Shown here piece after piece: positions 1-18,322 of a stretch of DNA of 64,000 nt. The translations under genes and the position numbers were made by a program. The DNA is taken from positions 7,508 through 71,507 of the IMG/VR virus record IMGVR_UViG_3300020204_002217. One strand, 5' to 3'. The DNA comes from a virus. Numbering within the stretch: the first letter of the stretch is position 1; the number at the start of each line of letters is the position of its first letter. Below the pieces are notes generated by a model, which worked only from the letters and a program-made list of their open reading frames with translations, searched no databases and was not told the origin of the DNA.

Positions 1-1
1 T

Positions 2-388
2 GATAACTACAGTTGCATCCTGGAAGTTGCTGGTTTGAAATCCTGCTGCTGCATGTGAAAGATGATGGTTGTGTGTTTTTACTTTGGGTGAGCCCAGGTA
101 GGCCATTGCTTCTAGTCCTAGAAGACTGCTGATTAAGAGGGGACCAAGGTCCTGTCCAGCCTGCAATTGACGAATTAATTTTAGCCACGGTTTTTCATAA
201 TAGTGAAATTCAACACTACTCCCTGTAAATTGCATTGCCTCTTCTAGTAAAGGTATACACAATTTAGCATCATGTTTAGTTTTACTATATCTTTCACTAT
301 GTCCTGCAAAAAGTATATCTCCTGTACTTGAAATTACACTAACCGCAGCATCGTGAAAGCCACAACTTATACCAAAGTGTGCATTCAT
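2..388 (-). CDS. Carbamoyltransferase, NodU/CmcH/TobZ family, N-terminal part (runs off the window; not in the ORF track)
   Basis: Manual translation from ATG at 388: MNAHFGISCGFHDAAVSVISSTGDILFAGHSERYSKTKHDAK...KTHNHHLSHAAAGFQTSNFQDATVVI. It has the family hallmarks HDAA, ERxSxxKHD, YYEKP and the HHxSH metal motif. Confidence 0.92.
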   Translation of the reverse strand, partial: MNAHFGISCGFHDAAVSVISSTGDILFAGHSERYSKTKHDAKLCIPLLEEAMQFTGSSVEFHYYEKPWLKLIRQLQAGQDLGPLLISSLLGLEAMAYLGSPKVKTHNHHLSHAAAGFQTSNFQDATVVI

Positions 389-390
389 AA

Positions 391-489
391 CTATTTATAT
401 ATGAAGGGGTCTCTTTTCCTCAACTCTTTTAACTTCTTGCGGTAAGCAATCTCCCTCTTCAACTTTTTCCACCATCGAACTAAAAACAT
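391..489 (-). CDS. Small basic 32-aa peptide MFLVRWWKKLKREIAYRKKLKELRKRDPFIYK, overprinted on the 3' end of the upstream gene
   Basis: Internal ATG at 489 of track ORF 391..579, preceded by a strong RBS (AGGAGAAAATCATG). The TAG stop lies 2 nt before the carbamoyltransferase ATG. Confidence 0.7.
   Translation of the reverse strand: MFLVRWWKKLKREIAYRKKLKELRKRDPFIYK
392..399 (-). promoter_or_regulatory. T4-type late promoter TATAAATA
   Basis: Perfect TATAAATA on the - strand, 3 nt upstream of the carbamoyltransferase ATG; gp55 is encoded in the window. Confidence 0.65.
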
Positions 490-1243
490 GATTTTCTCCT
501 GCAAATTTGTAAAGTTCTTCAGCAAATAATTCATGAGGAACTTCGTTATGATGCCAATATTTAGCTTTAGGATTTTCATATCCTAAATTCTTGTACTTCC
601 AATAAAAACACTCATCCTTATTTAGCAAGTTATAGTATCTACTTTGATCTATATGCTTAATATAATAATCAAGTAAGGTTTCTTTTTCACCTACAGTGTA
701 CATAGCATTACACATTAAGTATTCTATACCTTTTAATTTAAGATAATTTTGAAGCATTAATATACTAGTCACTGTAGCTATTTCAAGATACAATGGATTA
801 TCTGCCATAAATCTTTGCACCATTTGAAAATATTCTTTTTCTTCGTTACTATAGCTATTGTTATCGTCTCTTCCAGTACCATAATTTATATTATAGACAA
901 AATTTTGAGTTGTATCGAACCAGTCAGCAGACCTACAAATCTTTTCTCCGTCTATTTCGTAAGGTCTTACTAACTCCATTCTACCACTATCTGTCCAAGC
1001 TATTAGTACACTAAGAGTTACATAATCACTTTTAAGTTGATTATCAATCCAAGTCATAACTGATCGTGCTATACCAGCATTACTTATTGAATGATGACCT
1101 ATATTTACAGGTATTTTTCCTAACTTTCTAGCTAAACAATTGCCGAAACTGTATTGTCTATTATAAACACTATCTTGAGCGCCATTAATTTCAGCTCCGG
1201 CAATATGACTACAGCCGGCTATTAGCAATACATCTTGCGTCAT
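395..1243 (-). CDS. SGNH/GDSL hydrolase-like protein (possible sugar acyl esterase/transferase)
   Basis: N-terminal AGCSHIAG (block I Ser), NIG..SISNAGI (block II-like), IAWT..GR, and C-terminal HHNEVPHELFAE (block V His). Confidence 0.6.
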   Translation of the reverse strand: MTQDVLLIAGCSHIAGAEINGAQDSVYNRQYSFGNCLARKLGKIPVNIGHHSISNAGIARSVMTWIDNQLKSDYVTLSVLIAWTDSGRMELVRPYEIDGEKICRSADWFDTTQNFVYNINYGTGRDDNNSYSNEEKEYFQMVQRFMADNPLYLEIATVTSILMLQNYLKLKGIEYLMCNAMYTVGEKETLLDYYIKHIDQSRYYNLLNKDECFYWKYKNLGYENPKAKYWHHNEVPHELFAEELYKFAGENHVFSSMVEKVEEGDCLPQEVKRVEEKRPLHI

Positions 1244-1248
1244 ACTGC

Positions 1249-1256
1249 TACTTATA
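1249..1256 (-). promoter_or_regulatory. Late promoter variant TATAAGTA
   Basis: One mismatch to TATAAATA; 5 nt before ATG 1243; overlaps the upstream TAA stop. Confidence 0.5.
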
Positions 1257-3585
1257 CTGGAAATGCAGGTCTTTTTGTTTTTCTAACTTCAGGTACAGAA
1301 ACAATAATTTCTAACTCAGGTTTAGGCTTTACGTCTGACCTTTTAATGTCTAATACATTTACAGTAGCAAGTGACAATGCTTCTTTGGCAGTCATTGCTT
1401 CTTTTTCAGGTATTACTGTTGCTGTACTGTTGGAAACTTTAACCTCATAATTTTTATAATCGCCCCAATCGCCTTGACCTACATAATGGTTTTCAAAACT
1501 AAAATCTATACTAGCGTTTAATGCTGCTTCTTCATTTAATAAATTTGCAAAATCTTGTCCACTACGGCCCTCATCCTCACTCCACTGAGGTTTAGCTAAC
1601 TTCCTAGCACGTTTAGCAGTATTAGCTTGTATACGAGAATAGTCCTGTGCATAGAAAGGACCCTTACGTCCTTGTGGGGGAGGCAAACGATCATCAGTTG
1701 GATTATCTATTTGATTAAACTTTGTATAAAAGTCTGCTTCCCATTTACCGTCCTTATTAATTTTAAATTTGTATATTCCTGTATAGAAACATGCACCATA
1801 AGTATTACCAAATTCACGTTGGTCTATTTCAGGATTAAAATGTATTTCTGCAGTAAATCCACCTCTTACCTTCCATAACATACGCAAGAAAGTCCAAGGT
1901 TCATTTACTAAACTATTTGCATAAGGGTTATTTGGATCTACAGGGGGTATAATATTATAATCAAATTTCTCATATTGTATTTCTCTAAAATATGTAGGAT
2001 CGTCAAATTTTATTAGATAATGTTCCTTACGTAAATTATCACGTATAGGATAACTTATAGGATTATCTGTAAATCCTTTAAACATATCTAACCACATATG
2101 TATAAGTTTAACGCGAGCCATAATATGACTTCCGCCCTTAGTAAAATCGTTACTTATCCAAAAGCCCTGATACTTGTGCCATGACACATTAAATTTATGG
2201 GGATTTTGTCCTACTATAGTCTCAGGCCCTAAGCCATAACCAACACCCAGACCTGCATTATTAATATTCATGTTTCTTTGACGCCACATGAATGTCATAG
2301 TGTCTGCAAAGTCTTGATAATCTTCTGTAGGGAATCCTACAATCCAATTAGTTGCAGCCCATATTCCTACTTCTTTACCGGCTTTAAAATTATCTTCCAT
2401 TTCTTGTATAGTCACACCTTTTGCCATATCATCTAATACTTTTTGACTACCGCTTTCACAACCATAGTTAAACATTATGCAGCCGCCTTCTTTAAGGTCT
2501 TTAAAGTATTCAAGATCCATACGTCCGTCGCAACGTGCATATCCAGTCCAGTTTATTTTAAGACCTTTTGCTGCTACTGCTTTACAGAAAGCACGTAATT
2601 CTTTTAAGTTTCCATTAACAAGACTATCAATAAACCATATAATATCTGTGCCTTTATTATAGTAAAGCCATTCTACTTCTGTGACTAGGTCTACTGCTTG
2701 ACGTTGACGATACTTCCAAAAGTGAGTTTCTTCGCAAAATGTACACTTAGCTGTACATCCGCGACTAATTTCGCTGTTTACTCCATTGGGTAATTCATAT
2801 AAGCTAAAGTCAATACTTTCATAGTCTGGCATTGGTAGACCATTGATGTTTAATCTTTCATCTTCTGGTTGACTTAAAATTAATGGAGTATTTCTAATAT
2901 TACCATTTTCTGCATCTTCTAAAAGTTTTAGTAAATTAATTTCACCTTCACCTATGACAACATAATCATAATAAGGTTCAACTTTGAACCAACTCTTATG
3001 CACGTTAGGTCCACCTACTGCTATTTTGATTTCGGGCTTCCTACGTTTTAATTCTTCGCACATCCATTTGGTAGGTTCTTCGCTGATATAATATACACTG
3101 AAGCCAACTACGTCCGGATCTTTTGACAATATTTTATCTATTGTATCTGATAATATAGGTTCAAGTAAAGGATGAACATATCTTTTATAATTGTCGCCTA
3201 ACCAACGCCAGCTAGCACTAGGATCCCAAAGTCTAAATGGAATTTTTTCATTTGGACGCCAATCATCTCTATAAGCATTATAAGCAAGAACATTTAAGTC
3301 ATAAATGTTTGTTTCGTAGCCTGAACTTTTTGCTACACCGGATAGTCTTGCTAGACTAAATGGAGGCATATATGGACTCCACTCAGGACACAATACTAAA
3401 GCTAATTTCGTTTTACGTGTTTTATAATCTACATAAACGGGTGTTAGGTTTTTCTGCACTGTAGGTTTTGCATATGGCGCAATAGCATTCATCATGCTGC
3501 GATGACGTTCATCTGCAATATCCTCAGTGGGTCTTTGGTGAGGCTTTAATTCATTTACTGCTAAGTGTCTTAAGTTAAAATCCAA
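1252..3585 (-). CDS. Cobalamin-binding radical SAM enzyme (class B methyltransferase-like), 777 aa
   Basis: B12-binding-like region (PPFSLARL, VVGFSVY, IAVGGPNV, VVIGEGE), SRGCTAKCTFC CxxxCxxC motif, GCESGSQKVL, WIVGFPTE. TTG start with an AAGGAG RBS. Confidence 0.9.
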   Translation of the reverse strand: MDFNLRHLAVNELKPHQRPTEDIADERHRSMMNAIAPYAKPTVQKNLTPVYVDYKTRKTKLALVLCPEWSPYMPPFSLARLSGVAKSSGYETNIYDLNVLAYNAYRDDWRPNEKIPFRLWDPSASWRWLGDNYKRYVHPLLEPILSDTIDKILSKDPDVVGFSVYYISEEPTKWMCEELKRRKPEIKIAVGGPNVHKSWFKVEPYYDYVVIGEGEINLLKLLEDAENGNIRNTPLILSQPEDERLNINGLPMPDYESIDFSLYELPNGVNSEISRGCTAKCTFCEETHFWKYRQRQAVDLVTEVEWLYYNKGTDIIWFIDSLVNGNLKELRAFCKAVAAKGLKINWTGYARCDGRMDLEYFKDLKEGGCIMFNYGCESGSQKVLDDMAKGVTIQEMEDNFKAGKEVGIWAATNWIVGFPTEDYQDFADTMTFMWRQRNMNINNAGLGVGYGLGPETIVGQNPHKFNVSWHKYQGFWISNDFTKGGSHIMARVKLIHMWLDMFKGFTDNPISYPIRDNLRKEHYLIKFDDPTYFREIQYEKFDYNIIPPVDPNNPYANSLVNEPWTFLRMLWKVRGGFTAEIHFNPEIDQREFGNTYGACFYTGIYKFKINKDGKWEADFYTKFNQIDNPTDDRLPPPQGRKGPFYAQDYSRIQANTAKRARKLAKPQWSEDEGRSGQDFANLLNEEAALNASIDFSFENHYVGQGDWGDYKNYEVKVSNSTATVIPEKEAMTAKEALSLATVNVLDIKRSDVKPKPELEIIVSVPEVRKTKRPAFPV

Positions 3586-3604
3586 TTTGTGTATACTCCT
3601 TACT

Positions 3605-3611
3605 TATTTAG
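3605..3611 (-). promoter_or_regulatory. Late promoter-like CTAAATA
   Basis: Overlaps the TAA stop of 3608..4264 and is followed by AAGGAG and the TTG start. Confidence 0.45.
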
Positions 3612-4264
3612 ATTTTAGCAAAGAAGCCGCGTAAACTTTTTGTAAAGCCTTCAGTCGCTTTTATAAAATCATGTTGTAATTTATAGTGAATTATGGCCCT
3701 TTTTCCAATAATACGTGTGGTTTCATGATAAAATCCAGATACTCTTGCTACATGATTATAGGTTTCTTCATTTTCGTCATTATTTTCAATAACAAGCACA
3801 TCAGCAGTAAGAGGTAATGCAGGTCTTATATGTTCTAAATATTGGTTCAGCATATTTTGTTTATCGGTTACTGCTTCAGGAATAGTAATAACTATTAGAT
3901 CATAATTTTTCTTTGGTATATCCACAGGGTATTTACATACTACTGTATCTACGTGATATGGTATATAATGATTAAAAGATATTTGTTTTAAGTAACTACA
4001 TTTTTGAGAACTATCATCACAAAATGTTATTTTATTTGTAACTCCTAATCCTAATAATTCAAAGCCTATCTCACCCATATTAGAATTAATTATTAATGTG
4101 TTAAGATAAAATCTATGATATATAGTTCCTATAAACTCTATTAGTTCAGGAATTATATCATAATGTTCATAAACCTTTTCATTTGGTTCGTAAAGTATGA
4201 TATTGCTATGAAGAAAAATTCTTCCCTTATCTGGGTCGTCTAAAGCTGTTTTTGAGTTTATCAT
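3608..4264 (-). CDS. Degenerate class I SAM methyltransferase-like protein
   Basis: LIINSNMGEIGFELL (eroded motif I), ITFCDD, YDLIVITIP (motif IV-like). Confidence 0.45.
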   Translation of the reverse strand: MINSKTALDDPDKGRIFLHSNIILYEPNEKVYEHYDIIPELIEFIGTIYHRFYLNTLIINSNMGEIGFELLGLGVTNKITFCDDSSQKCSYLKQISFNHYIPYHVDTVVCKYPVDIPKKNYDLIVITIPEAVTDKQNMLNQYLEHIRPALPLTADVLVIENNDENEETYNHVARVSGFYHETTRIIGKRAIIHYKLQHDFIKATEGFTKSLRGFFAKI

Positions 4265-4265
4265 A

Positions 4266-6551
4266 TTAATTTAAAAAAGTCGTATCTACCTTATAGTTAT
4301 TATTTTCCTTAAAAAATAGCATATGATTGTATTCAACTATGGGTTTAACATTTTTATAAAAATCTAACCATTGTGTTGTATAGGTTAGCAATCTTTTAAT
4401 TTCTTTATATACTGCTTCCAAACGTAAATCATCATCTTCTATTTGATCATAATTTTCATCAATAAATGGACTAAAAGTTTTGTACCCTAAATTATGTAGT
4501 TCCTTTAAAATAGTGGGTTTTCCTAAAATTATAAAAGGATGTTTCATAGCAATAGCTTTATAAGTTTTTTCACTTATAAAAACAGTATCATCTCTTCCAT
4601 TTGTGTAAAAGTCTGTTTCAGTAATTATACTAAAACTACTTGATTTAAAGTATTTAAAATCGTCTGGAAGTATATCTACTGGATTGGGTCGTTCTGGTGT
4701 AATGTTTAACCTTAAAGGTAAATCTTTTTTAAATTTACGTATGTTTGAACACATAGGAGAATTTATAGTTGTAATTAAAAATTGTTTATCTCCCTCAAAT
4801 GAGACATGTCCCATATGTACTATACTGTCTCTATACATATTATCCAATAACTTTATTCTATGCAACCTAGGCACTTTGTTAAAACATAAAAAATTCTTTT
4901 CTCTAAATGTAAGTTCATAATCTCCAGTAAACTCTACATTTTTATATTTTTTTCTAGTAGCATGATGAAAGTAATTCGTACAAACTATAGTAATGTACCT
5001 TTCTATATTATACTTAATACATAAATTTCTATACAAAGATTTCTGAACGCTTGCGCCAGTTAATAACACAAAATGTGCCGAATCAATTTTATGTGCTACT
5101 AGACTATGAATTCTATGAATTTTTAAGACTATTGACTCCAATAGTGTTTCAGAACAACAATCAAATATAATTCTATTTTTGCCGTTATCTATAGCTTGTA
5201 TAATTTCCTCTACGACATCCTCAGTTGGTCGTAACCTAAATGTACACATAGGCGCTATATCCGCAGGGATTATATGCGCTCTATGTAAACTTGATCCTAT
5301 TTCTGGAATAAACAGAATTATTTGATCTAGTCTATCTCTAAATTCTTTTTCTGTTAGTTTATGCTTTTTTTTAGGACGTGTATCACCATAGTGAATTATC
5401 TCACCAGTATGATTTCTATGATTTAACTTACGCCATGGGTCAATAACAACTGTATGTTGCGGAAAATTAAGTTTTTCTGTATAGTCGTCCCAATACCCTA
5501 TTAAGTAAACGTCTGTCCAATCTTCATGCAGTTCATAATCCTCGGTGTTAGGATCATAATATCTAACGTAACCACCGTGTAACATTATGTAATGACCTAT
5601 TAATAAGCTATTACTACCCTGAGTATAATGAACTTTTGGTTTATAGGCTTTGCCAACTATTGTGATTTTTTTACCATTTTTTAAACAGCGCAAGGCCATA
5701 TTTTCTGCTTGCACTTCTCTTGCCTTCATAATACTATCAAATAGATCATAACCCAAATTTAAACGATCTGCTAAAAATCTAAGTGCAATATTATCTCTAG
5801 GATGACAAGCTCCGGCATCACCTAGTCCTGCTTTCATATATGCTGGACCCATGATACGGTGTGTAGATTTAGCAAGAGCGTTTGTCACAACATCCACATT
5901 CATGTTTCCATTAAATTCAGCAACGTCTTGTATCATGTTGACTAAAGCTAATTTTGTACTAATAAAAGTATTGTAAAAAATCTTAATAGCTTCAGCTTCA
6001 TCCCAAGTACCTACTTCATATCGAGGCTCATTCTGCATAAAAACCTTGTAAAAATCTATAAGTTCTTTTGCGTCGCCTGTTAAACTACCATCTTCTGTTC
6101 CAATGATAACCATTTCAGGATTAACCATATCCCATTTTATAGTGCCCATTGCTATTAAATATGGATTGTAAATAAAACGTGCTTTAGTTATACATGGACG
6201 TAATAGAGTTCGTGTGGTACCTGGTAATACTGTGCTAATTAAAACTACAAGTTGGTGAGATTTGGCATGTAAATTAACTTCACGTAATATATTAATTACC
6301 GGAGTATAATCAAAGTCTTTGTTAGGGAGATGACTAGTAGGAGTTTCTCCTCCATACATGTCTTCGTGTGGTGTAGGAGCTGCTATAAAAATTATGTTTC
6401 TGTCTGCTATAGCATCCTGAATACTGTCTTTCATAACAAACCCAGGACTTCTGGGCAAAATATCGTAACCTACTACATCATAATGTTGAGCCATTACTTC
6501 AGCGCAATCTTTACCCAATTTTCCAACACCTATCATTGCTACTTTCTTCAT
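4266..6551 (-). CDS. UDP-glucose/GDP-mannose dehydrogenase fused to a GT10-like (fucosyltransferase-like) domain
   Basis: GVGKLG Rossmann motif, FIAAPTP, STVLPGT, EAIKIFYNTF, catalytic GACHPRD, GKAYKP. The C-terminal ~370 aa carry FSIITET..ISEKTYKAIAMKHPFIILG. Confidence 0.88.
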   Translation of the reverse strand: MKKVAMIGVGKLGKDCAEVMAQHYDVVGYDILPRSPGFVMKDSIQDAIADRNIIFIAAPTPHEDMYGGETPTSHLPNKDFDYTPVINILREVNLHAKSHQLVVLISTVLPGTTRTLLRPCITKARFIYNPYLIAMGTIKWDMVNPEMVIIGTEDGSLTGDAKELIDFYKVFMQNEPRYEVGTWDEAEAIKIFYNTFISTKLALVNMIQDVAEFNGNMNVDVVTNALAKSTHRIMGPAYMKAGLGDAGACHPRDNIALRFLADRLNLGYDLFDSIMKAREVQAENMALRCLKNGKKITIVGKAYKPKVHYTQGSNSLLIGHYIMLHGGYVRYYDPNTEDYELHEDWTDVYLIGYWDDYTEKLNFPQHTVVIDPWRKLNHRNHTGEIIHYGDTRPKKKHKLTEKEFRDRLDQIILFIPEIGSSLHRAHIIPADIAPMCTFRLRPTEDVVEEIIQAIDNGKNRIIFDCCSETLLESIVLKIHRIHSLVAHKIDSAHFVLLTGASVQKSLYRNLCIKYNIERYITIVCTNYFHHATRKKYKNVEFTGDYELTFREKNFLCFNKVPRLHRIKLLDNMYRDSIVHMGHVSFEGDKQFLITTINSPMCSNIRKFKKDLPLRLNITPERPNPVDILPDDFKYFKSSSFSIITETDFYTNGRDDTVFISEKTYKAIAMKHPFIILGKPTILKELHNLGYKTFSPFIDENYDQIEDDDLRLEAVYKEIKRLLTYTTQWLDFYKNVKPIVEYNHMLFFKENNNYKVDTTFLN

Positions 6552-6565: not shown

Positions 6566-7560
6566 TTAGTCATTGCTTGACGTAGAAATTGCTTATATCT
6601 GTAATCTACATCGTAAAAATCACTATTATCTACTTTTAACTCTTTTATACGACATTGTATTATTTGTGGAATATATGTAATGTCATGAATTATTTCTAAA
6701 GCTCTATTATAATTATGTAGAATTTTAGGATAAAGCTTATTATATAATAACTTTAAATTTTCATTTTTAATATTATGTAGATTAAGTACTAATTGTTTAG
6801 CTCTATCATCTAAAACTACATTACTGTCAAATTTGTAATCAATTATTTCATCATATAGCTCAAAGCCTAGGTGTTTAAGATATTGATAATAATTGGGCAA
6901 ACTTAATACCACAAAAGGCTTTTTGAGCAAGATAGGCACTATAGTTTTTTCAGTTATGAACGGGACACTATCTGTAGCTTCGCCTACAACCTGCATGAAA
7001 CTTTTATGTTGTTGTTTACAGAAAAAGAAACTATCTTGAAGTTGATAAAAGTCATCCCCTACTGATCTGTAACTGTTGTCATAATGTTTAAATTTATAAT
7101 GAGTGTTAATATAAGGAAATCTATTCCATGAAACAACACCTATATCTAATAGACCTTGCTCACTTATATTGTCTATTAAGGCGCAACGATGATCATGTGA
7201 TTTATTGTTTAAATTAATAAAAGGATAATCAAATTGGTCATATTTTACACTATCATAATCTATAGTATTACGTAGTAACATTTCGCCCCAATTAAACCAA
7301 AAACTATACCAATGTATTAATGTTATTTCTATTTTATCGCTTTCATAATATTTATAAAAGTCGTGATTAAAAGATGAAAATATATACGTAATTTTTCTTA
7401 CACCCTTATTAAAAAGATCATCATAAAAATTATCGTTTATTGCCCAAAACCATTCTGTATCAGTATTAATTATTATATGGGAGGCAGTTGCGTTTTCAAT
7501 AATATAATTATTATTATCGCCCCGCTGGTTGAAAAACCATTTTACTTCTTTGTGAGCCAT
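6562..7560 (-). CDS. GT10-like glycosyltransferase-related protein
   Basis: LNNKSHDHR, QVVGEA..FITEKTIVPILLKKPFVV..LKHLGFELYDEIIDYKFD. Paralogous to the C-terminus of 4266..6551 and to 12188..13588. Confidence 0.6.
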   Translation of the reverse strand: MAHKEVKWFFNQRGDNNNYIIENATASHIIINTDTEWFWAINDNFYDDLFNKGVRKITYIFSSFNHDFYKYYESDKIEITLIHWYSFWFNWGEMLLRNTIDYDSVKYDQFDYPFINLNNKSHDHRCALIDNISEQGLLDIGVVSWNRFPYINTHYKFKHYDNSYRSVGDDFYQLQDSFFFCKQQHKSFMQVVGEATDSVPFITEKTIVPILLKKPFVVLSLPNYYQYLKHLGFELYDEIIDYKFDSNVVLDDRAKQLVLNLHNIKNENLKLLYNKLYPKILHNYNRALEIIHDITYIPQIIQCRIKELKVDNSDFYDVDYRYKQFLRQAMTN

Positions 7561-9482
7561 GCTTTACCAAAATTTCTACGTCTAGCAAAAAATATCTGTT
7601 CACAAAATCTTTGTAGTGATTGGTGTTTATCTTCAGGAAAATCAAACTCATATGTGCATGTTGAATGGGAATAAAGATTACTATTGTCTTTTACATATCC
7701 TGGAATGTCAAAGTTTAAATTAAGTATTTTTGGATAATCAGAAATAGTGTTGTAATCAATTAAAAATGTTTTTTGAAATAGTACTAGCTCTTTTTGTAAG
7801 TCATAATCTAAATTAAAGTACGTGTAAAGAAAGTTATCTATAAATTTAAATATATGACTATGTTTGTTTTCACTATGTATATTAATAACAGTGCTATGTA
7901 TTAAGTTCCAACCATGTATTTCCATTCCTTGTATAGGATCATGATCTATTTTACCTTCCTCAGTCCATTTAGAGTAATGAGTTCGAATCCTTTTAATTTC
8001 TTCACTAAACCATTCATCTTTTTGTATGTACTCAAAAAGTAATTCATAAAATTTACTATACTCTACATTTTGTGATTTATACAATACTCTACTAATATAA
8101 TTTGTTATACCGTTAATATGGAACGTGTTTATAAACCAACTCCATACTTGAGCCTCAATCATGTCATGTCTAGGCATATCTTTTGTCGATACTATAACCT
8201 CTATTCCTTCTTTTAGCTCATGCTCATTATATGTGCCTACAAGATAATCATAGACAACTTTGCCTTCTAAATTAAACTCTTCTTTTTGTGTAAGGTTCAT
8301 TTCGGCATTTTCTAATAACTGTGCTTGGTAGACTGTAATGCCAGTATGGTTTCCTGCTTTAAATAGCTTATAGAAGTTATCTTTCCAAGTTTGTAGTGTT
8401 TCGCCCGGCAAACCTAAAATTAGTTCAGTATACAACGGAATGCTATACTGTTCACATATTTCAAATACCTCTTCAATCTTGTTCATCTCAAGATTTTTTC
8501 TTTTGATGATATCTAAAACGTTATCATCCATACTTTGCACAGATAAGTTCAGTCCCATCTTACTTCCGCCTTCATAAATTAGCTTACGAACAATATCAAC
8601 TACTTCTTGTTTTTGATTTTTAGCCCAAGCTATCGTATAGGCCTTAGGATTACCATACTTCTTTTGTACTTCAATTAGTTTATCAGCTATCAAACTGTCT
8701 CGTTCTGGAAAAATACCGAAGTTAGCATCTGTCAAACTTATAAAATCTAATCCATGACTTCCTATCCATTCTAATTCATCAAATACTCTGTGCAAATCAA
8801 ACTTCTTTACTTTATTATAAGTAAGACTGCCCCAGTCACAAAATGTACATGCATATGGACAACCCCGATTTGTTTCTAGTGTGGCATTCCAGCGTATCTC
8901 CGGATGATCATTCATCAACTTATCAAACACACCCGTAAGATAAGGACTAGGAATCTCGTCAAGTTTTTCAATTCTTATACCAGGACCAGTATCAAATATT
9001 TTGCCATTATCATTAATAAGCAAACCCGATATTGATTTAAAACTAGCTCCCTTTACACTTATAGTTTCAAGTAATTTCTTAAAAGTTATTTCACCTTCTT
9101 GTTTAACAGCTATATCTACATATGGGAATTTTTCAAAAAAATTCTTATCAGTAATAGGAGGTTCCGGGCCTCCGATAAAAATTAAAATGTCTTTGTTTCT
9201 TTTTTTAAGTTTTTTAGCTAGAACGTTGTTATAACTACGGTTCCAAATATAAGTACTAAACCCTACGACCTGACTATCTTTAAGTTTTTCTACAGCCTCT
9301 TCGATAGTATCGCGACGCCAGATAAATTCACCTAATTCAAACTTATCTGTTATATGTTTAAATTGGCTTACATAGCTCCATAATACAGCCGGGCTATAGG
9401 GTAAGTAGTAGGCATTAAATTCTTTAGGACCCTGTTGAAAATTAGGGTTGACAAAACTGACGGTTATTTTTGACATAGCCAT
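7542..9482 (-). CDS. Cobalamin-binding radical SAM enzyme, 646 aa
   Basis: YLPYSPAVL, VVGFSTYIWN, IFIGGPEP, QEGE, ETNRGCPYACTFCDW, DANFG, LSVQS, ELILGLPGET. Confidence 0.92.
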   Translation of the reverse strand: MAMSKITVSFVNPNFQQGPKEFNAYYLPYSPAVLWSYVSQFKHITDKFELGEFIWRRDTIEEAVEKLKDSQVVGFSTYIWNRSYNNVLAKKLKKRNKDILIFIGGPEPPITDKNFFEKFPYVDIAVKQEGEITFKKLLETISVKGASFKSISGLLINDNGKIFDTGPGIRIEKLDEIPSPYLTGVFDKLMNDHPEIRWNATLETNRGCPYACTFCDWGSLTYNKVKKFDLHRVFDELEWIGSHGLDFISLTDANFGIFPERDSLIADKLIEVQKKYGNPKAYTIAWAKNQKQEVVDIVRKLIYEGGSKMGLNLSVQSMDDNVLDIIKRKNLEMNKIEEVFEICEQYSIPLYTELILGLPGETLQTWKDNFYKLFKAGNHTGITVYQAQLLENAEMNLTQKEEFNLEGKVVYDYLVGTYNEHELKEGIEVIVSTKDMPRHDMIEAQVWSWFINTFHINGITNYISRVLYKSQNVEYSKFYELLFEYIQKDEWFSEEIKRIRTHYSKWTEEGKIDHDPIQGMEIHGWNLIHSTVINIHSENKHSHIFKFIDNFLYTYFNLDYDLQKELVLFQKTFLIDYNTISDYPKILNLNFDIPGYVKDNSNLYSHSTCTYEFDFPEDKHQSLQRFCEQIFFARRRNFGKAWLTKK

Positions 9483-13594: not shown

Positions 13595-13602
13595 TATTTA
13601 TG
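13595..13602 (-). promoter_or_regulatory. Late promoter-like CATAAATA
   Basis: Overlaps the TAA stop at 13598; 6 nt before ATG 13588. Confidence 0.5.
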
Positions 13603-14566
13603 TATCAATATATTTGGGTATTATAATATCGGTGCCGCAATGACAATGTTCTTTGCCGCAAATAATTCGCTTAGGCCCTACTCTTGCAACGTCATCAAGT
13701 ATATGACCTATATAGCCACCTTGACCGCAACTTGCTAGGCTCATCTCCCCAACTGGATTGATGAATATACAATCTCCTACATTGCATTCCCAGCCCATAA
13801 AGAAATTGTTACCTGCAACAATGACTTCATTACTATTACAGACCTCCGTTGACTTATCATCATATTTGTTATAGCTTACAGTCATAGTAGTACGTTTCAT
13901 TGGCTTACGCTTACTTTGATATACCTCAGTTGTATTGTTTTTAATAAACTCAACTTTAGCTGGGTCATCATAATGCCACGGTCCAGTATTAGGACTCATT
14001 TCGTCGAATAAAGGTGTCCACTCTAAGAAGTAGTTAGGCATAACTGTTTTTAGATAGTTACCAAACTCTACAACTTCCCAAAATCTTTGATCATGCAATA
14101 ACATCTTAGTGGATAGGTAGTTTACCTTATCACATAAAAAGATATTGTTGTCTTCATAACGCTTTTTATTTGCAAATTCTATATGAAAACTTGCTACTAC
14201 ATCATCAAATAAATAATAATTCTTTTCCCACCAAGCTAATGGCCTTGATAAGTTTGTGTTTACTGCTAATGTTGCACGTGGTAATTCATTATATAACCAC
14301 TCACATATTGGTAAAAAGTTCTTCCATGCTGTAGGTTCGCCACCACTAAAGAAAAACTTAAAGTTTTTATAGCCAGCAGCTTTATATTTTGTTACTATTG
14401 TATCAAGGTTTTTAATATATCTGTCAGTATTACCTTCGTTCTTTGCAGTACCTCCCCAGTTGCCAGGGTTACAGTAGCTACATTGATAATTACAAAAGTT
14501 ATTTACCTGCCAGGTAATACTTAAATATGGCTGAGGAGCTTCAATAGCTATTAACTTCTTGCCCAA
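13598..14566 (-). CDS. Radical SAM enzyme with a C-terminal twitch/SPASM-like Cys cluster
   Basis: CNYQCSYC, FSGGEPT, NTNLS, ASFH; C-terminal GWECNVG..I.P.G...ASC..ICGKEHCHCGTD. Confidence 0.9.
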   Translation of the reverse strand: MGKKLIAIEAPQPYLSITWQVNNFCNYQCSYCNPGNWGGTAKNEGNTDRYIKNLDTIVTKYKAAGYKNFKFFFSGGEPTAWKNFLPICEWLYNELPRATLAVNTNLSRPLAWWEKNYYLFDDVVASFHIEFANKKRYEDNNIFLCDKVNYLSTKMLLHDQRFWEVVEFGNYLKTVMPNYFLEWTPLFDEMSPNTGPWHYDDPAKVEFIKNNTTEVYQSKRKPMKRTTMTVSYNKYDDKSTEVCNSNEVIVAGNNFFMGWECNVGDCIFINPVGEMSLASCGQGGYIGHILDDVARVGPKRIICGKEHCHCGTDIIIPKYIDT

Positions 14567-15822
14567 TCGAACACCTCTTTAAGTTCGGGAACTATTTCTT
14601 CTAACTTTTCGTCACGAAATTTGTCTAATTCTTCATTAAACTGTATAAACTCTTGAACGCCACCTTTGTTTTCATCACCTACAGTTAGATTATAGATAAT
14701 CATTTTGAAACCATTATAAATGTCTTGATTATCTTTATATTTGTTTTGATATACACGATATAATTCTGCTAATCTACGCTTAACATGTGTTGGCATAATC
14801 ATTATATTACTATACCAAGGATTTGTAGCTAAATTAAAGCGCGGGCTTGATTTAGTATCAATGAAGCCACTTTCAATCATATAATCAAAAAAGTCCGGGA
14901 AAGTAAACACGTTCCACATGCTTATGGTTGGAGTAATCTGAAATTCAGCATGTGGAACTTGCTTTTTAACAGTTCGAATGTTTGCTTCAATGCGTGACCA
15001 ATCGGTACCCTTACGGATACATTCTGCTACTTTCCCGTGTGCGTCAAGACTGGCCCATATTTTAAGTTTAGGAAACTTCTTCCAATATTCAATTAAATCA
15101 ACACCTTTTTTATATTTTAATGAACTAAAGTTAGTGGTGTATGTTAATTCAACTTGATCTGTAAGGCCGTTAGCTATCCAATAGTCTAAGCACTCATAAT
15201 GCTCTGGAGTGATGATAATTTCACCTCCTGCAAAATATACTTCTGTTACGTCTTTTAGATGAGGCTTTAATTTTTTCATAAAATCGCCGCCATCGTTGTT
15301 GTTAATAACAACTTTATTTGTTTTAAAATACTGTTGATAAATTTCTGGGCCGCGTTCTTCCATAAACTCTTGTGCCCATTGGCTTGAGCAGCTAGGTCCA
15401 CAACTACGGCATTTCATATTACATAGATTACTAAAACGTATATCCATGTATTTCATTTCAAATTCTTTTAAACTTCCATCTTTGTTTGTATTTTCGCTTA
15501 TGTAGTTTACATATTCTAAACCTTTACGTTTATTATGACTTTGACGCATAGTCCATGTGCCCATAAGTTCAAGATCATAACAACGCTTACAAGCCTCTAC
15601 AGGCTCGTCATTCATCATAGCTAAACGTAATTTCTTATAATCAGGAGTATTCATCATATCAATTATTTCTTGATTACTCTTAATTTCTGAGACTGGCATG
15701 TTACTGTCAGCCACACAACAAGGAAGTACACGCTTATCTGGCCATGCATGAAAGTGTACCCATGGCAGTACACAAAAGTACTTGCCGTGTTTAACAAGGT
15801 TTTCTGTTTCTATTTTATCCAT
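14551..15822 (-). CDS. Radical SAM enzyme with an N-terminal twitch Fe-S domain
   Basis: CVLPWVH..PCC..CKRCY precedes DIRFSNLCNMKCRSC, YFAGGE, YTTN, ASLD. Confidence 0.9.
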   Translation of the reverse strand: MDKIETENLVKHGKYFCVLPWVHFHAWPDKRVLPCCVADSNMPVSEIKSNQEIIDMMNTPDYKKLRLAMMNDEPVEACKRCYDLELMGTWTMRQSHNKRKGLEYVNYISENTNKDGSLKEFEMKYMDIRFSNLCNMKCRSCGPSCSSQWAQEFMEERGPEIYQQYFKTNKVVINNNDGGDFMKKLKPHLKDVTEVYFAGGEIIITPEHYECLDYWIANGLTDQVELTYTTNFSSLKYKKGVDLIEYWKKFPKLKIWASLDAHGKVAECIRKGTDWSRIEANIRTVKKQVPHAEFQITPTISMWNVFTFPDFFDYMIESGFIDTKSSPRFNLATNPWYSNIMIMPTHVKRRLAELYRVYQNKYKDNQDIYNGFKMIIYNLTVGDENKGGVQEFIQFNEELDKFRDEKLEEIVPELKEVFDWARS

Positions 15823-15824
15823 TT

Positions 15825-17063
15825 TTACTCCAACAAATCTTGCAAACTATTTAATTCAGGGAACGTTTTCCAGAAACTTTCATCACGTATTCTATCAATA
15901 CTTCCTGTATGCATTAAGAACTTTTCTTTATTTGCAGCCCAAGTATCACGCTCCTTAGCAAAATTAATAGCATCTAGTACAAGTCTAGGTAAACAAGTCT
16001 TATCATTTGTATTAGCCTCACTCCACGCTAACGCTTTACGCTCTGCTTCAACTTTTAATGCTTTTGGCAAACTAGTAGCACTATAATAACTAGGATGAAC
16101 CGCCAAATATAAACTATGATACCAATCTTCTTCACGTATAATATTTTTACTTTTTAAGTAGCTATAAAACTCACTTAATGTAAGATAATTATAGATACTG
16201 AAAACAGTATTCATTTGAAATACTATATAATCCAAATTACGGAAAGTTAATAGATTGCTTTCCACCTTTCCCCAATCTGTCCCCTTACGCATGTATTCTG
16301 CACGTTCACCATAGTGATCAATACTACAGCTTAATTCAATTTTTTTAAAATGTTTCCATAAATCTAAAACATCATGATTTTTATAACGTATATTACTTGA
16401 ATTAGTATTGTACCTTAAAGTAATATTGGTACGCCCTAATCGTATCATTTCTTCAAGTATGGTATAATGTTCATCAGTAATTAATGGCTCACCACCTGCA
16501 AAGTATGCCAGATCAATATGTTCTACATGAGTGAGTACTTCTTTTAATAAATCTCCCTTTTCATCGTCGGCGTGAATTAGTATAGGATGTTTAGGATCAT
16601 AGTTTTTATTCATTTCTAGACCCCATTGACTGCTAAACTCACTTCCGCACGTTCTGCATTTAAAATTGCAAATATTACTGAAACGTATGTCAAAATAGCG
16701 CATTTTAAATTCGTCCACAGTACCGTCTTCTTTTGTACTAGGTACGACTTCATCATAGTACTTGCCAAAATGCTCTTTACTATAGTTTCTAAAACTATGC
16801 GGACCTGCTTCTTCATGTTTATAACAAAAATCACAAATTTTATTCTTACGTTCATTAAGCATGTCCAATCGTAATTCTTTCATCTTAGTACTATTAAATG
16901 CTTGTTCAAGTGTAATTTCTTTAGTGTTTCCAAAAGGTTGTGTATAGTCATTACTACAGCAAGGGTAAATATCTCCTTTAGGAGTAACATTAAGATGTAG
17001 CCATGGGAACATGCAAAATGTTTTACTTTCGTTTAATAAAAATTGTTTATTCATACTGGCCAA
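15825..17063 (-). CDS. Radical SAM enzyme with an N-terminal twitch Fe-S domain
   Basis: CMFPWLH..PCC..CDFCY; DIRFSNICNFKCRTC; YFAGGEP; YNTN; CSID. Confidence 0.9.
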   Translation of the reverse strand: MASMNKQFLLNESKTFCMFPWLHLNVTPKGDIYPCCSNDYTQPFGNTKEITLEQAFNSTKMKELRLDMLNERKNKICDFCYKHEEAGPHSFRNYSKEHFGKYYDEVVPSTKEDGTVDEFKMRYFDIRFSNICNFKCRTCGSEFSSQWGLEMNKNYDPKHPILIHADDEKGDLLKEVLTHVEHIDLAYFAGGEPLITDEHYTILEEMIRLGRTNITLRYNTNSSNIRYKNHDVLDLWKHFKKIELSCSIDHYGERAEYMRKGTDWGKVESNLLTFRNLDYIVFQMNTVFSIYNYLTLSEFYSYLKSKNIIREEDWYHSLYLAVHPSYYSATSLPKALKVEAERKALAWSEANTNDKTCLPRLVLDAINFAKERDTWAANKEKFLMHTGSIDRIRDESFWKTFPELNSLQDLLE

Positions 17064-18322
17064 AATTTTCTTTTGTCTATGTTTATTAATCCACGTAATT
17101 CAGGAAAAACACTTTCAAATTTTTCCCCGCGTATCTTATCTAATCGTTCTATCTCAGCTTTAAAATAATGTCCATGAGTTTCCCAAGTATTTTGACTATC
17201 AGCCCAAATATGAGTTCTTTCAAGTTGCTCTATCTTTTGTTCTTGGAAAGCCTTTGTTTTCATTAATTCAATTACTTTGTTTACGCTTTGTTTACCCTTT
17301 TCTTTATATTCCTGCGGTAGTACATGGCAAGCAATATGGAAAGGAGTGCTAGCACAATATAGTGTATAAACTCTATCTTTAATTGTATACATTTTGTTAT
17401 CTATTAGATATTGATAAAATTCTGCAATACTTAGGTAATTGAATGCACTTAATACTGTGTTTATTTGCAACACAAGATTTTTTTGTTTTTTTATAGTATG
17501 GAAGTTTGTTTCTACAACTCCCCAATCAGTACCATGTCTTATATACTCTGCTCTTTTACCAAAGTGATCTATACTTGCGTAAATGTTTATGTCGTGTGTA
17601 AAATAACTCCAAAGTTTAAGCAAATCTTTATTCTTAAATTTTAAGTTGCTTAAATTAGTATTATAACGTAACTTGATATTGGTTTTATTTTTACGTATCA
17701 TTTCTTCAAGCATAATATAATGCTCTTCAGTAATCAATGGCTCGCCGCCTGCAAAATAGGCCATCTCCATAAATTCTACTTGATCTAATACATCTTGTAA
17801 AAACTGCTTACTATCGTTTTTTGGAATTTGCCTTGCATAGGTAAGATTGCTTTTTATATCCTCTTGTTCCCATTGTGTACTAAATTCAGCTCCGCATGTT
17901 CTACATTTAAAGTTGCAAATATTACTAAAGCGGATATCAAAATATTTCATTTCAAATTTAGACAACGAGCCGTCGTCCAAATCAGTATATGCCATTACAT
18001 TATCAAACAAATGAAGCCATTCTGCATTAGCATATTGTCTCGAACTCTTTATACCCTGTTCTTCGTGTTGATAACAATTAGTGCATTCGTTATTCTTTTT
18101 GCCAGCTAGCATATCTAATCTAAGCTGCTTCATTTTTTCACTATTAACAAGTTCTAAAAGTGAATTTCTCCTTGGATCGCCAACTCCTGTAGTTGTTGTG
18201 CAACTTTGTGCTATACAACAAGGAGCAGCTACACTTGCAGGAGTAGTATGTAAATGAACCCAAGGGTACATACAAAAAGTTTCGCTTTTTTCAAGCATCA
18301 AATGTTGTAGTACATTTTTCAT
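17051..18322 (-). CDS. Radical SAM enzyme with an N-terminal twitch Fe-S domain
   Basis: CMYPWVH..PCC..CTNCY; DIRFSNICNFKCRTC; YFAGGEP; ASID. Confidence 0.9.
   Translation of the reverse strand: MKNVLQHLMLEKSETFCMYPWVHLHTTPASVAAPCCIAQSCTTTTGVGDPRRNSLLELVNSEKMKQLRLDMLAGKKNNECTNCYQHEEQGIKSSRQYANAEWLHLFDNVMAYTDLDDGSLSKFEMKYFDIRFSNICNFKCRTCGAEFSTQWEQEDIKSNLTYARQIPKNDSKQFLQDVLDQVEFMEMAYFAGGEPLITEEHYIMLEEMIRKNKTNIKLRYNTNLSNLKFKNKDLLKLWSYFTHDINIYASIDHFGKRAEYIRHGTDWGVVETNFHTIKKQKNLVLQINTVLSAFNYLSIAEFYQYLIDNKMYTIKDRVYTLYCASTPFHIACHVLPQEYKEKGKQSVNKVIELMKTKAFQEQKIEQLERTHIWADSQNTWETHGHYFKAEIERLDKIRGEKFESVFPELRGLINIDKRKFWPV

Follow-up and report, generated by a model that had tools for sequence, protein, structure and literature searches.

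A conserved mini-protein gene linked to a phage carbamoyltransferase, most likely encoding a helper subunit of the enzyme

A small reading frame at positions 489..391 (minus strand) of the 64,000-nucleotide phage DNA stretch analyzed here (the window) is a genuine conserved protein-coding gene under purifying selection, and it is linked to the gene for a NodU/CmcH/TobZ-type carbamoyltransferase (CT). Its product belongs to a strongly conserved and so far unnamed peptide family, which is most likely a helper subunit of the phage CT. The best reading of the mini-protein is a soluble, helical accessory subunit of the enzyme, and we give that reading an even chance.

The gene (391..489, minus strand) consists of 32 codons and a stop codon, with its ATG at 489-487 and its TAG at 393-391, and the translation is a 32-aa protein, MFLVRWWKKLKREIAYRKKLKELRKRDPFIYK. 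A Shine-Dalgarno (SD) sequence, AGGAG (496..500, read 500-496 on the minus strand), sits 6 nt 5' of the ATG within the coding sequence of an SGNH-like gene, while downstream the TAG is followed by TT and then by the CT start codon (ATG, 388-386), a spacing of 2 nt on the minus strand. The initial annotation had described a small ORF in another frame, with its own ribosome binding site, that stops 2 nt before the CT; the coordinates and the AGGAG bear this out. The richness in Lys and Arg described there is also real, with 13 K or R residues against three D or E and a net charge of +10. The mean hydrophobicity is -0.41, and no transmembrane (TM) segment was found in the 32-aa peptide from its hydrophobicity, charge, and predicted fold. 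That fold is a charged helix over residues 2 to 26 (pLDDT 88), amphipathic at the N terminus (muH ~0.37) and followed by the invariant D27-P28-F29-I30-Y31 and by K32, the last residue.

Conservation was examined in 59 viral loci encoding a CT 52 to 82% identical to that of the window, in which we looked upstream of the CT, on the same strand, for an ORF ending in [KR][KRQ][DE]P[FY][IVL]Y.{0,2} and then the stop codon. The ORF was present in 54 of the 59. Earlier it had been proposed to look for small RDPFIY-ending ORFs upstream of phage CTs, with loss of the peptide frame at homologous loci taken as evidence against the gene; what we found instead is a frame that is kept and is tied to the CT. 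Among 33 distinct peptides, K18, K25, D27, P28, F29, I30, and Y31 are invariant. Conservation peaks in the ~17 residues before the stop codon, and the amphipathic pattern of the N terminus is conserved likewise. The paired tryptophans pointed out in the initial annotation (W6 and W7) are present here, but both vary in the relatives. Over the last 16 codons of the gene, pN is 0.125 and pS 0.94 (pN/pS 0.13), each of the 16 codons examined varies at its third position, and synonymous change is saturated; selection acts on the protein and not on the DNA.

The family extends well beyond these loci. A profile search returned 393 protein clusters (50% identity) at E≤1e-3; all 149 clusters listed end in the motif, and the 10 looked up carry only the names "hypothetical" or "uncharacterized." The phage peptides range from 31 to 40 aa, and one database protein, P0001, holds a tandem double copy. 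A scan of 185,579 species genomes yielded only 12 peptide loci, each in a metagenome-assembled genome; a CT lies within 3 kb of 11 of them, in some cases one just 31 to 33% identical. At locus L076, a peptide copy lies on either side of the CT, the downstream copy 138 nt before the next ORF. No family match was found in Pfam, PHROGs, or NCBIfam (32-aa and 62-aa forms in Pfam hmmscan, E≤1), and the ESM Atlas matches are unnamed clusters only. A tblastn search of the 32-aa peptide against cultured phages gave nothing at E≤1 with the low-complexity filter on, missing the copy in the Ralstonia phage RsoM2USA (complete genome, 343,806 bp), which carries a peptide-DUF6071-CT trio; blastn of window positions 1 to 4300 against cultured phages gave no match. 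Literature searches on carbamoyltransferase, jumbo phage, and small protein found no paper on the peptide family among those listed, those joining PFIY with carbamoyltransferase found nothing related as judged by title, and those naming DUF5989 found no paper. At three loci with a CT (L042, L061, and L050; 3 kb of upstream sequence each), no peptide lies within ±3 kb, and it is absent from five CT loci of Kyanoviridae phages; thus, a CT of this type can work without the peptide.

The window contains the 5' part of the CT gene (2..388, minus strand; 129 codons), which runs past the window start; the full enzyme is 493 aa (parent record, G000:C1:6414-7895). Both the Kae1-like Carbam_trans_N domain (Pfam PF02543, 1.6e-32) and the YrdC-like Carbam_trans_C domain (PF16861, 3.6e-49) are present in it, which identifies it as a NodU/CmcH/TobZ O-carbamoyltransferase, and its relatives in the PDB are the novobiocin CT (1e-49), GdmN, and TobZ (2e-33). 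The gene is surrounded by a sugar-nucleotide and radical SAM cluster. Matches to UDP-glucose dehydrogenase and an epimerase in this cluster make a nucleotide sugar or glycan a candidate acceptor of the CT, in place of 5hmC-DNA (PMC8670742). Directly after it comes a gene for a 1898-aa protein with about twelve (D/E)-P-P-[FY]-I-Y repeats.

Peptide and CT are arranged for translational coupling, as had been proposed for the window: the peptide has its own SD, and the CT has none. At 23 distinct abutting loci, an SD-like core precedes the peptide ATG in 19 and the CT ATG in none. The peptide ORF ends within -4..+12 nt of the next gene in 53 of 54 copies. Thirty-nine copies abut the CT ATG itself (-4..+3 nt), 21 with an ATGA overlap and 18 with gaps of 1 to 3 nt; the remaining 15 lie 168 to 2032 nt upstream of the CT, and 14 of these abut (-4..+12 nt) an ORF preceding it. 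What precedes the pair varies among loci (SGNH-like, B12-radical SAM, primase, and NTP-transferase-like genes all occur there; primase and DnaB flank the pair in L053-L058), yet peptide and CT stay together. The link persists with diverged CTs (31% to 82% identity) and in both gene orders.

The SGNH/GDSL-like (DUF6071-like) gene of the window (395..1243, minus strand; 282 aa) ends with a TAA at 397-395, and 95 of the 99 nt of the small ORF lie inside it in a different frame. Its assignment comes from a weak DUF6071 match (E 0.003; 17.7 bits, under the 27-bit cutoff) and from better-scoring homologues in related loci. Homologues with 39 to 45% identity occur in 9 loci, a DUF6071/SGNH-like gene lies within ±3 kb at 26 of the 59 CT loci, and in 8 loci it precedes the peptide gene as in the window; it is a third, facultative member of the module. 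An SGNH protein search of viral contigs matched no pattern. The peptide had been described as overprinted on this gene, but the polarity is the reverse, with a conserved peptide gene and a nonconserved C-terminal extension of ~28 codons (SSMVEK...PLHI; 395..478, minus strand) through which the SGNH-like gene reads. In relatives, the SGNH stop falls 4 codons (L004, L005, L007, L006, and L011), 5 codons (L049), or 8 codons (L019 and L021) into the peptide gene, and read-through to ...LHI or ...LYI before the stop codon is found only in the window and in L043. The near-complete overlap is therefore true of this phage but peculiar to it and L043 rather than a trait of the family. The overlap is secondary: the SGNH-like gene lost or shifted its ancestral stop and came to read through the purine-rich peptide gene. 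It illustrates cleanly how two genes can come to overlap over a long stretch by a neighbor's read-through of a conserved purine-rich mini-gene, not by overprinting with a new ORF. The idea of a programmed frameshift that would join the peptide to the SGNH protein was set aside, since at most loci the neighbors are unrelated and the SGNH frame relative to the peptide is not the same in L004 as in the window or L019.

The mini-protein is predicted to be a single long alpha-helix with an amphipathic N-terminal part, broken at Asp-Pro and ending in an invariant D-P-F-I-Y(K) hook. It would be translated from its own SD, and the SD-less CT would be started by ribosomes terminating on the peptide ORF (2 nt away here, ATGA in many relatives); through such coupled translation, both products would be made together. 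From the gene, the purifying selection on it, its linkage to the CT, and the coupling architecture, all of which are observed, we infer physical binding and its effect: the mini-protein may bind the NodU/CmcH-type CT as a noncatalytic subunit that stabilizes, activates, or localizes the enzyme. Its basic amphipathic helix could hold the CT on an anionic surface, either the inner membrane leaflet or a polyanionic acceptor. The role would be close to that thought for the transmembrane small proteins of cellular CTs (DUF5989/SxtK type, GvgG).

Co-folding of the CT with the peptide, a check proposed in the initial annotation, gave scores of 0.51, 0.50, and 0.00. The median of 0.50, against 0.00 for the best of three controls, passes weakly with one of the three runs at 0.00, and the tool's own verdict is "weak support" with no interface reported; contact agreement was at least 0% and partner pLDDT at least 56. 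Of 157 solved complexes, 116 reach the mark, as do 2 of 215 mismatched pairs, and scores of 0.60 or under account for 18 of the 157 solved complexes and for both passing mismatches. The accessory subunit is the best-supported of the functions suggested earlier, but the membrane tether suggested with it does not hold in the form of a DUF5989-type anchor, the TM segment being absent. An invariant C terminus at the stop codon, which would also be expected of an arrest peptide or a modified core peptide, counts against the subunit. The peptide is unlikely to be a fragment detached from a longer CT: a peptide also accompanies the 560-aa CT of L076, and length differences among CTs are spread along the protein.

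The lead given in the initial annotation, that small proteins ending in PFIY accompany CTs, proved right for bacterial DUF5989 (PF19451), a 49-aa protein with a TM helix that ends in ...APFIYTLF. A CT homologue lies within 1.5 kb at 33 of 35 DUF5989 loci, all of which contain partial CTs only, and in a Pseudomonadota sample the DUF5989 gene is directly upstream of the CT, as is the phage peptide. Among 20 DUF5989 sequences, P43, I45, and Y46 are invariant and F44 is at least 90% conserved. Both families are very small, carry a Leu/Ile-x-x-Leu-Trp pattern and then a basic cluster at the N terminus, have P-F-I-Y in the last 8 residues, and adjoin a Carbam_trans_N/C gene (33/35 bacterial versus 54/59 phage loci). 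They differ in that DUF5989 has a hydrophobic TM helix (...WLLPILIxxxLLGGLIVL...), whereas the phage peptide has a charged helix and ends in ...RDPFIY(K). DUF5989 is also common in cells, occurring in 83 of the 201 Bacteroidota and 37 of the 151 Pseudomonadota genomes sampled, in contrast to the 12 loci of the phage family.

The phage peptide itself is not a DUF5989 member. It has neither a Pfam match above the 27-bit gathering score nor a central TM helix, and PF19451, searched in six frames across the entire 71.5-kb record, matched nowhere at E≤10. Comparison of the two families by hhalign gave a probability of 23% (P 8.7e-4) over the N-terminal 13 columns only, and the top scores of reciprocal hmmsearch (8.3 and 5.8 bits) are about those of shuffled sequences (9.6 and 5.6 bits). 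Homology to DUF5989 is thus not demonstrable, and what carries the analogy is a motif of 4 residues, the small size, and the gene neighborhood. Moreover, with a basic N terminus and a single TM helix, DUF5989 would by the positive-inside rule place its PFIY tail across the membrane from the cytoplasmic CT, which argues against PFIY as a shared CT-docking hook.

Small ORFs beside NodU-type CTs (sxtJ/K, gvgG, and DUF5989) have been noted for years, and at least one is genetically essential. According to the sxt reports, sxtK, 165 nt long and with no assigned function, adjoins the CT gene sxtI, with which it is proposed to act (PMC2679770, PMC2885083); the neighboring GDSL-lipase gene sxtL (PMC2679770) parallels the SGNH-like gene of the window. 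In the gvg cluster of Pseudomonas fluorescens, gvgG is reported as a 47-aa TM small ORF beside the CT gene gvgF, its deletion abolishes product formation and is complemented in trans, and the authors propose that small proteins facilitate CTs generally (bioRxiv 10.1101/080572). SxtK/SxtJ and GvgG resemble the phage protein as short ORFs adjoining a NodU-type O-carbamoyltransferase, with a proposed role as its co-worker, but they are described as having TM domains and lie downstream of the CT, whereas the phage protein is soluble, polybasic, and encoded upstream. The phage family, with at least 393 clusters, is the soluble, TM-less counterpart, in which just the amphipathic segment at the N terminus and the PFIY end are kept, and a 32-residue synthetic peptide with a soluble enzyme would give a tractable handle for asking what such partners do for CTs.

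A phage-encoded NodU/TobZ-type enzyme is already represented by the 5-hydroxymethylcytosine (5hmC) CT of environmental phages, which, in the accessible part of its description, is a 63-kDa protein that showed activity in vitro on its own and is found together with thymidylate-synthase homologues (Yang et al. 2021; PMC8670742). It shows that polyanions, DNA or RNA, can be substrates of this type of enzyme, and that part of the account mentions no small partner (PMC8670742). The window CT differs in its setting among sugar-nucleotide and radical SAM genes; the 32 window ORFs scanned gave no thymidylate-synthase match (the record is 21% complete).

The close spacing of the two genes could also mean that the ORF works in cis as a leader or arrest peptide, mainly loading ribosomes onto the SD-less CT (or DUF6071-CT) cistron, while its invariant C terminus acts within the ribosome at termination and tunes reinitiation, perhaps in response to a metabolite; we consider this unlikely. 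Leader and arrest peptides of the TnaC, SecM, and SpeFL type are short ORFs before a regulated gene, conserved at the C-terminal residues near the stop. The phage ORF agrees with this in its distance to the next ORF (53 of 54 copies), in the distribution of SD-like cores (19/23 before the peptide, 0/23 before the CT), and in the peak of conservation beside the stop, but unlike that type it has copies downstream of the CT, in L076 with 138 nt to the next ORF, and in tandem, in P0001. The N-terminal amphipathic pattern is conserved too, and the SGNH gene precedes the peptide in the 8 loci arranged like the window, so the ORF is not always an operon leader. A ribosome stalled at a stop 2 nt from the CT ATG, or overlapping it, would be expected to occlude that start rather than expose it, and the stop-start overlap fits simple coupling. 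The analogous gvgG acts in trans (10.1101/080572), which, for a different family, bears on the question indirectly.

That the peptide is an independent small basic protein with a target of its own (nucleic acid, membrane, or host), cotranscribed and coupled with the CT without binding it, strikes us as unlikely. A net charge of +10 on a single helix with an amphipathic N terminus is typical of proteins that bind nucleic acids or membrane surfaces, the co-folding support for CT binding is weak, and some phage CTs act on DNA, such as the 5hmC CT (PMC8670742). However, a linkage that holds from 31% to 82% CT identity, through changing neighborhoods and in both orders, would be difficult to account for if there were no functional tie to the CT, and a parallel PFIY-ending small protein stands beside bacterial CTs.

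The remaining functional alternative, which we regard as improbable, makes the peptide a substrate or scaffold, RiPP-like or the precursor of a peptide-borne cofactor, with Tyr31 or the C terminus modified by the CT, for example by O-carbamoylation, or by radical SAM enzymes. HypF, which carbamoylates the C terminus of HypE, is an analogy, and the cofactor precursors PqqA and MftA resemble a short invariant C-terminal core with Tyr31. Such a core is present here, and radical SAM genes abound: besides two B12-radical SAM genes, the window has a SPASM array and five other radical SAM matches (six genes if a SPASM-only one is counted); five large related jumbo-phage contigs have 9 to 14 matches each; and in L010 a B12-radical SAM gene directly precedes the peptide. 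Yet the constant neighbor is the CT and not a radical SAM enzyme. The single radical SAM match in RsoM2USA is ~93 kb away from its peptide-DUF6071-CT trio, the 41.7-kb L058 record has none, and in L053-L058 the pair lies between primase and DnaB. The constant co-occurrence with a maturase (radical SAM/SPASM, RRE, or protease) that marks RiPP precursors was thus not seen in RsoM2USA, L058, or L053, and no protease, RRE, or exporter was recognized in the 32 window ORFs scanned. The Trp residues vary, and the earlier suggestion of a RiPP precursor for the radical SAM enzymes gained no specific support. Known NodU/CmcH/TobZ-type CTs act on hydroxyls of small molecules or nucleic acids.

Stated as a pathway, this alternative has the mini-protein as an acceptor or scaffold on whose D-P-F-I-Y(K) end the CT and the SGNH-like esterase act, joined in some phages by the radical SAM enzymes, a role that we think doubtful. 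Tyr31 could be carbamoylated, or a product could be built on the peptide C terminus. If so, the phages would encode a peptide-borne cofactor or RiPP-like molecule with chemistry so far undescribed, and in cells the PFIY end shared by DUF5989/SxtK-type proteins of bacteria would be a sign of this reaction. In a bolder variant, the DPFIY end would mimic the (D/E)-P-P-[FY]-I-Y repeats of the 1898-aa protein and compete for, or prime, whatever recognizes them.

A chance alternative-frame ORF inside the SGNH gene, giving no product, would suit its position almost wholly within another ORF and the lack of a match in Pfam, PHROGs, and NCBIfam, but it is refuted, to the point of having almost no probability left, by 54 of 59 loci in which the ORF is mostly free-standing, the invariant DPFIY and other columns, the pN/pS of 0.13 with saturated synonymous change, the 393 clusters independently called by gene finders, and the conserved SD (19/23). 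At least one cultured jumbo phage, RsoM2USA, carries the gene without its being annotated. The source of the window is a lake jumbo phage whose parent record of 71.5 kb is 21% complete, and the 20 sequencing runs listed are all lake-water metagenome DNA.

The small ORF (489..391, minus strand; ATG at 489, TAG at 393-391) has 32 codons and encodes MFLVRWWKKLKREIAYRKKLKELRKRDPFIYK. A Shine-Dalgarno (SD) sequence, AGGAG (500-496, minus strand), precedes its ATG by 6 nt, and a TT spacer separates its stop codon from the ATG (388, minus strand) of a carbamoyltransferase (CT) gene, the first 129 codons of which fall inside the window. An SGNH-like gene of 282 aa (1243..395, minus strand; TAA at 397-395), whose sole match is a weak, below-cutoff hit to DUF6071 (E = 0.003), covers 95 of the 99 nt of the small ORF in a different frame. 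All the elements noted in the initial annotation, among them the overlap, the ORF's own ribosome-binding site, and the 2-nt junction to the CT, are present in the sequence. The complete CT was taken from the parent record, a 71.5-kb viral record rated 21% complete and a jumbo phage fragment, of which the window occupies G000:C1:7508-71507; the CT has 493 aa, with Carbam_trans_N (1.6e-32) and Carbam_trans_C (3.6e-49) domains, and among solved structures it is related to GdmN, TobZ, and the CT for novobiocin.

When viral contigs were scanned with this CT, 59 loci were recovered, their CTs being 52 to 82% identical. In 54 of them, an upstream ORF on the CT strand ends in [KR][KRQ][DE]P[FY][IVL]Y plus at most two residues. 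Among the five exceptions, the ORF, with a terminal RDPFIYK, is truncated where the retrieved region begins at its 5' end (L008) or the contig begins within the CT (L048); L042, L050, and L061 have no peptide ORF within ±3 kb of the CT. Because near-duplicates are common among the 59 loci, fewer of them are independent; the distinct peptides number 33, including that of the window. Across these, K18, K25, D27, P28, F29, I30, and Y31 are invariant, and conservation is 90% or higher at E13, Y16, R17, E22, R26, and K32. For the 16 codons ending at Tyr31, pN is 0.125 and pS is 0.94 (ratio, 0.13), and third positions vary at every one; this pattern places the selection on the protein rather than on an RNA or DNA element. 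The proposed peptide frame is thus conserved in homologous loci. A chance ORF inside the SGNH gene was considered and excluded.

A profile built from the 33 peptides and run against 1.84 billion cluster representatives matched 393 clusters with an E value of 1e-3 or less, 26 of which reached 1e-10 or less. The motif is present in all 149 sequences among the matches listed, which include a few miscalled longer ORFs, one frameshift fusion into a CT N terminus, and one protein (P0001) that is a tandem (head-to-tail) fusion of two peptide copies. Ten clusters that we looked up sit on contigs of up to 458 kb and are named only "hypothetical protein" or "uncharacterized protein." The peptide matched nothing in Pfam, PHROGs, or NCBIfam and only unnamed clusters in the ESM Atlas; no family library names it, and a literature search returned no report on it or its family.

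Among the 54 viral copies, 39 abut the CT ATG, 21 with an ATGA stop/start overlap and 18 with gaps of 1 to 3 nt. The remaining 15 lie 168 to 2032 nt upstream of the CT, and all but one of these abut (-4 to +12 nt) an ORF of 184 to 283 aa preceding the CT, which is DUF6071/GDSL-like wherever recognizable. The gene upstream of the peptide varies (SGNH-like, B12-radical SAM, primase with DnaB after the CT, NTP-transferase-like, or unknown), and a DUF6071/SGNH-like homologue occurs within ±3 kb in just 26 of the 59 loci, so the peptide and the CT are the core pair, often joined by the esterase-like gene as a third partner. A motif scan of 185,579 species genomes returned 15 loci, all in metagenome-assembled genomes (MAGs), 12 of them true peptide copies; a CT lies within 3 kb of 11 of the 12, the twelfth contig stopping 52 nt past the peptide, and these CTs include ones 31 to 33% identical to that of the window. 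On one MAG contig (L076), two diverged copies (1530-1649 and 3268-3453, plus strand) lie before and after a 560-aa CT; the upstream copy ends in a degraded motif, RDNFTYKH. Ralstonia phage RsoM2USA carries an unannotated copy of 36 codons between genes 201 and 200 (L062:2029-2139, plus strand on this locus; MG752970.1 complement 125891-126001), in the order peptide, DUF6071 gene, CT, and its CT is 45% identical to that of the window. Its DUF6071 gene 200 and CT gene 199 are both annotated merely as hypothetical proteins. Marine virus AG-345-D19 has a copy ending in SDPYIYEE ahead of its CT. No peptide was found within 2.5 to 3 kb in five Kyanoviridae loci, the CTs of which are 26 to 35% identical.

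We compared initiation sites across 23 distinct loci of the abutting type, the window among them. The peptide ATG has an SD-like core ahead of it in 19 of these and the CT ATG in none, so translation of the CT most likely depends on ribosomes that have just terminated on the small ORF; such ribosomes would restart at the CT, and both proteins would be produced together. A CT without an SD, together with invariant residues at the peptide's stop codon, would also suit a leader or arrest peptide that controls the CT, but we consider this unlikely because the N-terminal pattern of the peptide is conserved as well and because copies occur downstream of a CT (L076) and in tandem (P0001). The overlap itself, initially described as an overprinted peptide, has the reverse polarity. 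In relatives with the same SGNH-like gene upstream (39 to 45% identity), its stop falls near the start of the peptide gene: 4 codons in (ending in CF in L004, L005, and L007 and in CL in L006 and L011), 5 codons in (L049), or 8 codons in (ending in NQMV in L019 and L021). Full read-through is found only in the window (ending in PLHI) and in L043 (ending in SLYI; 1560-1800, plus strand), a second, independent case in which the peptide ORF is intact in the other frame. Since the SGNH stops of relatives come early and the peptide gene is purine rich, with few stop codons in any frame, the conserved element is the mini-gene, and the 28-residue SGNH tail is a lineage-specific read-through.

AlphaFold2, with a 33-row alignment, predicts a single helix (residues 2 to 26) that breaks at D27-P28 and is followed by a short turn (28 to 31), with a mean pLDDT of 88. 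The peptide has a net charge of +10, and residues 1 to 18 are moderately amphipathic (muH of about 0.37), with a hydrophobic face; sequence analysis found no hydrophobic stretch able to span a membrane. Three runs of cofolding with the CT (alignments of 38 rows for the CT and 33 for the peptide) scored 0.51, 0.50, and 0.00 (median, 0.50), and all three controls scored 0.00, for a tool verdict of "weak support." In calibration, 116 of 157 solved complexes attained the mark used, as did 2 of 215 mismatched pairs, and scores at the mark but ≤0.60 came from 18 of the 157 solved complexes and both passing mismatches. The runs had a contact agreement of at least 0% and a partner pLDDT of at least 56, and no interface was given. 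The cofolding nudges the odds toward CT-peptide binding without establishing it.

The best-fitting reading, which we hold at about even odds, is that the peptide is an accessory subunit of the CT: the linkage extends over CTs of 31 to 82% identity and both gene orders, translation appears coupled, and there are cellular parallels. This half of the original proposal is favored by linkage, coupling, and the weak cofold; as for its other half, a membrane tether, the lack of a membrane-spanning segment means that the peptide is not an anchor of the DUF5989 type. An unrelated basic peptide merely cotranscribed with the CT is slightly less probable than a leader peptide and is hard to square with the breadth of CT linkage. 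Least probable is a substrate or scaffold peptide, including the suggested RiPP-like precursor for radical SAM enzymes, which would suit the invariant, Tyr-containing C terminus and the many radical SAM genes (9 to 14 matches in each of five large related jumbo-phage contigs, an unusual load for phages), but the CT is the only constant partner, and in the complete genome of RsoM2USA the one radical SAM match lies about 93 kb from the peptide locus.

The initial annotation pointed to small PFIY-ending proteins beside CTs, and this is true of DUF5989 (PF19451; a 49-position model), which occurs in the sampled genomes of Bacteroidota (83 of 201) and Pseudomonadota (37 of 151). DUF5989 proteins begin with M-x-x-L-x-x-L-W-x-F-M-[KR]-x-R-K-K-F-W, followed by a transmembrane (TM) helix, after which they end in Q-G-S-A-V-A-P-F-I-Y-T-L-F; a CT homologue lies inside the 1.5-kb flanks of the gene in 33 of 35 loci, and in the Pseudomonadota sample the CT is about 25 nt downstream, which is the phage gene order. 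Common to the two families are their small size, a basic segment with L/I-x-x-L-W at the N terminus, P-F-I-Y near the C terminus, and the CT neighbor, but the TM helix of DUF5989 has no counterpart in the phage peptide. Nor does the peptide belong to DUF5989: it does not match the DUF5989 HMM, hhalign aligns the N-terminal 13 columns only (probability, 23%; P = 8.7e-4), and reciprocal HMM scores are not above those of shuffled sequences. That two families sharing a CT neighbor should both have PFIY in the same position is unlikely to be a coincidence (a chance roughly estimated, from residue frequencies, to be on the order of 1e-5); either common descent or convergence may account for it. By the positive-inside rule, the PFIY tail of DUF5989 should face the opposite side of the membrane from a cytoplasmic CT, so docking onto the CT may not be the role of PFIY in those proteins.

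The short ORFs sxtJ and sxtK (the latter 165 nt; PMC2679770), described as being of unknown function, adjoin the CT gene sxtI, with which sxtK is proposed to act (PMC2679770, PMC2885083). In Pseudomonas fluorescens WH6, the CT gene gvgF has as its neighbor gvgG, which encodes 47 aa with a TM domain; deletion of gvgG abolishes product formation and is rescued in trans, and the authors suggest that CTs are commonly facilitated by small TM proteins (bioRxiv 10.1101/080572). That small ORFs accompany CTs is already published; new here is a variant that is soluble and carried by phages.

Phage CTs can modify nucleic acids; a 5hmC carbamoyltransferase is active by itself in vitro, and homologues of thymidylate synthase co-occur with it (PMC8670742). 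Unlike that setting, the window CT cluster contains a UDP-glucose dehydrogenase fusion and an NAD-dependent epimerase/dehydratase, and none of the 32 window ORFs scanned matched thymidylate synthase. The cluster also holds two B12-radical SAM genes and a radical SAM/SPASM gene array and adjoins baseplate genes and a 6,983-codon ORF. The UDP-glucose/GDP-mannose dehydrogenase (4269-6551, minus strand; 761 residues) has its domains in the first ~280 residues and no Pfam match in the C-terminal ~400; in the related locus L008, a stand-alone dehydrogenase gene of 390 aa immediately precedes the CT. In the tandem radical SAM genes (13601-19725, minus strand), SPASM is N terminal to the radical SAM core (residues 17 to 84 before 127 to 287); further radical SAM genes lie at 1255-3585, 7545-9482, and 62765-63769. 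The 6,983-codon ORF (25991-46939, minus strand), which has no Pfam match in either half, probably encodes a giant fiber or virion protein, and gp25-like (50386-50832) and gp53-like (56991-57305) baseplate-like genes lie upstream of it. Directly after the CT, just outside the window, is a gene for a 1898-aa repeat protein (L002:708-6404, equal to G000:C1:708-6404; minus strand) with no Pfam match, ~65-aa repeats of FDFSWxPDPxDPP[FY]IYxFGxQW, and 12 matches to P[FY][IVT]Y. The P-[FY]-I-Y core of these repeats echoes the DPFIY end of the peptide, by coincidence or through a functional link, both being possible. Of the closest loci that we examined, nine (L003, L004, L007, L008, L009, L010, L024, L037, and L039) have long post-CT ORFs with 5 to 10 such motifs.
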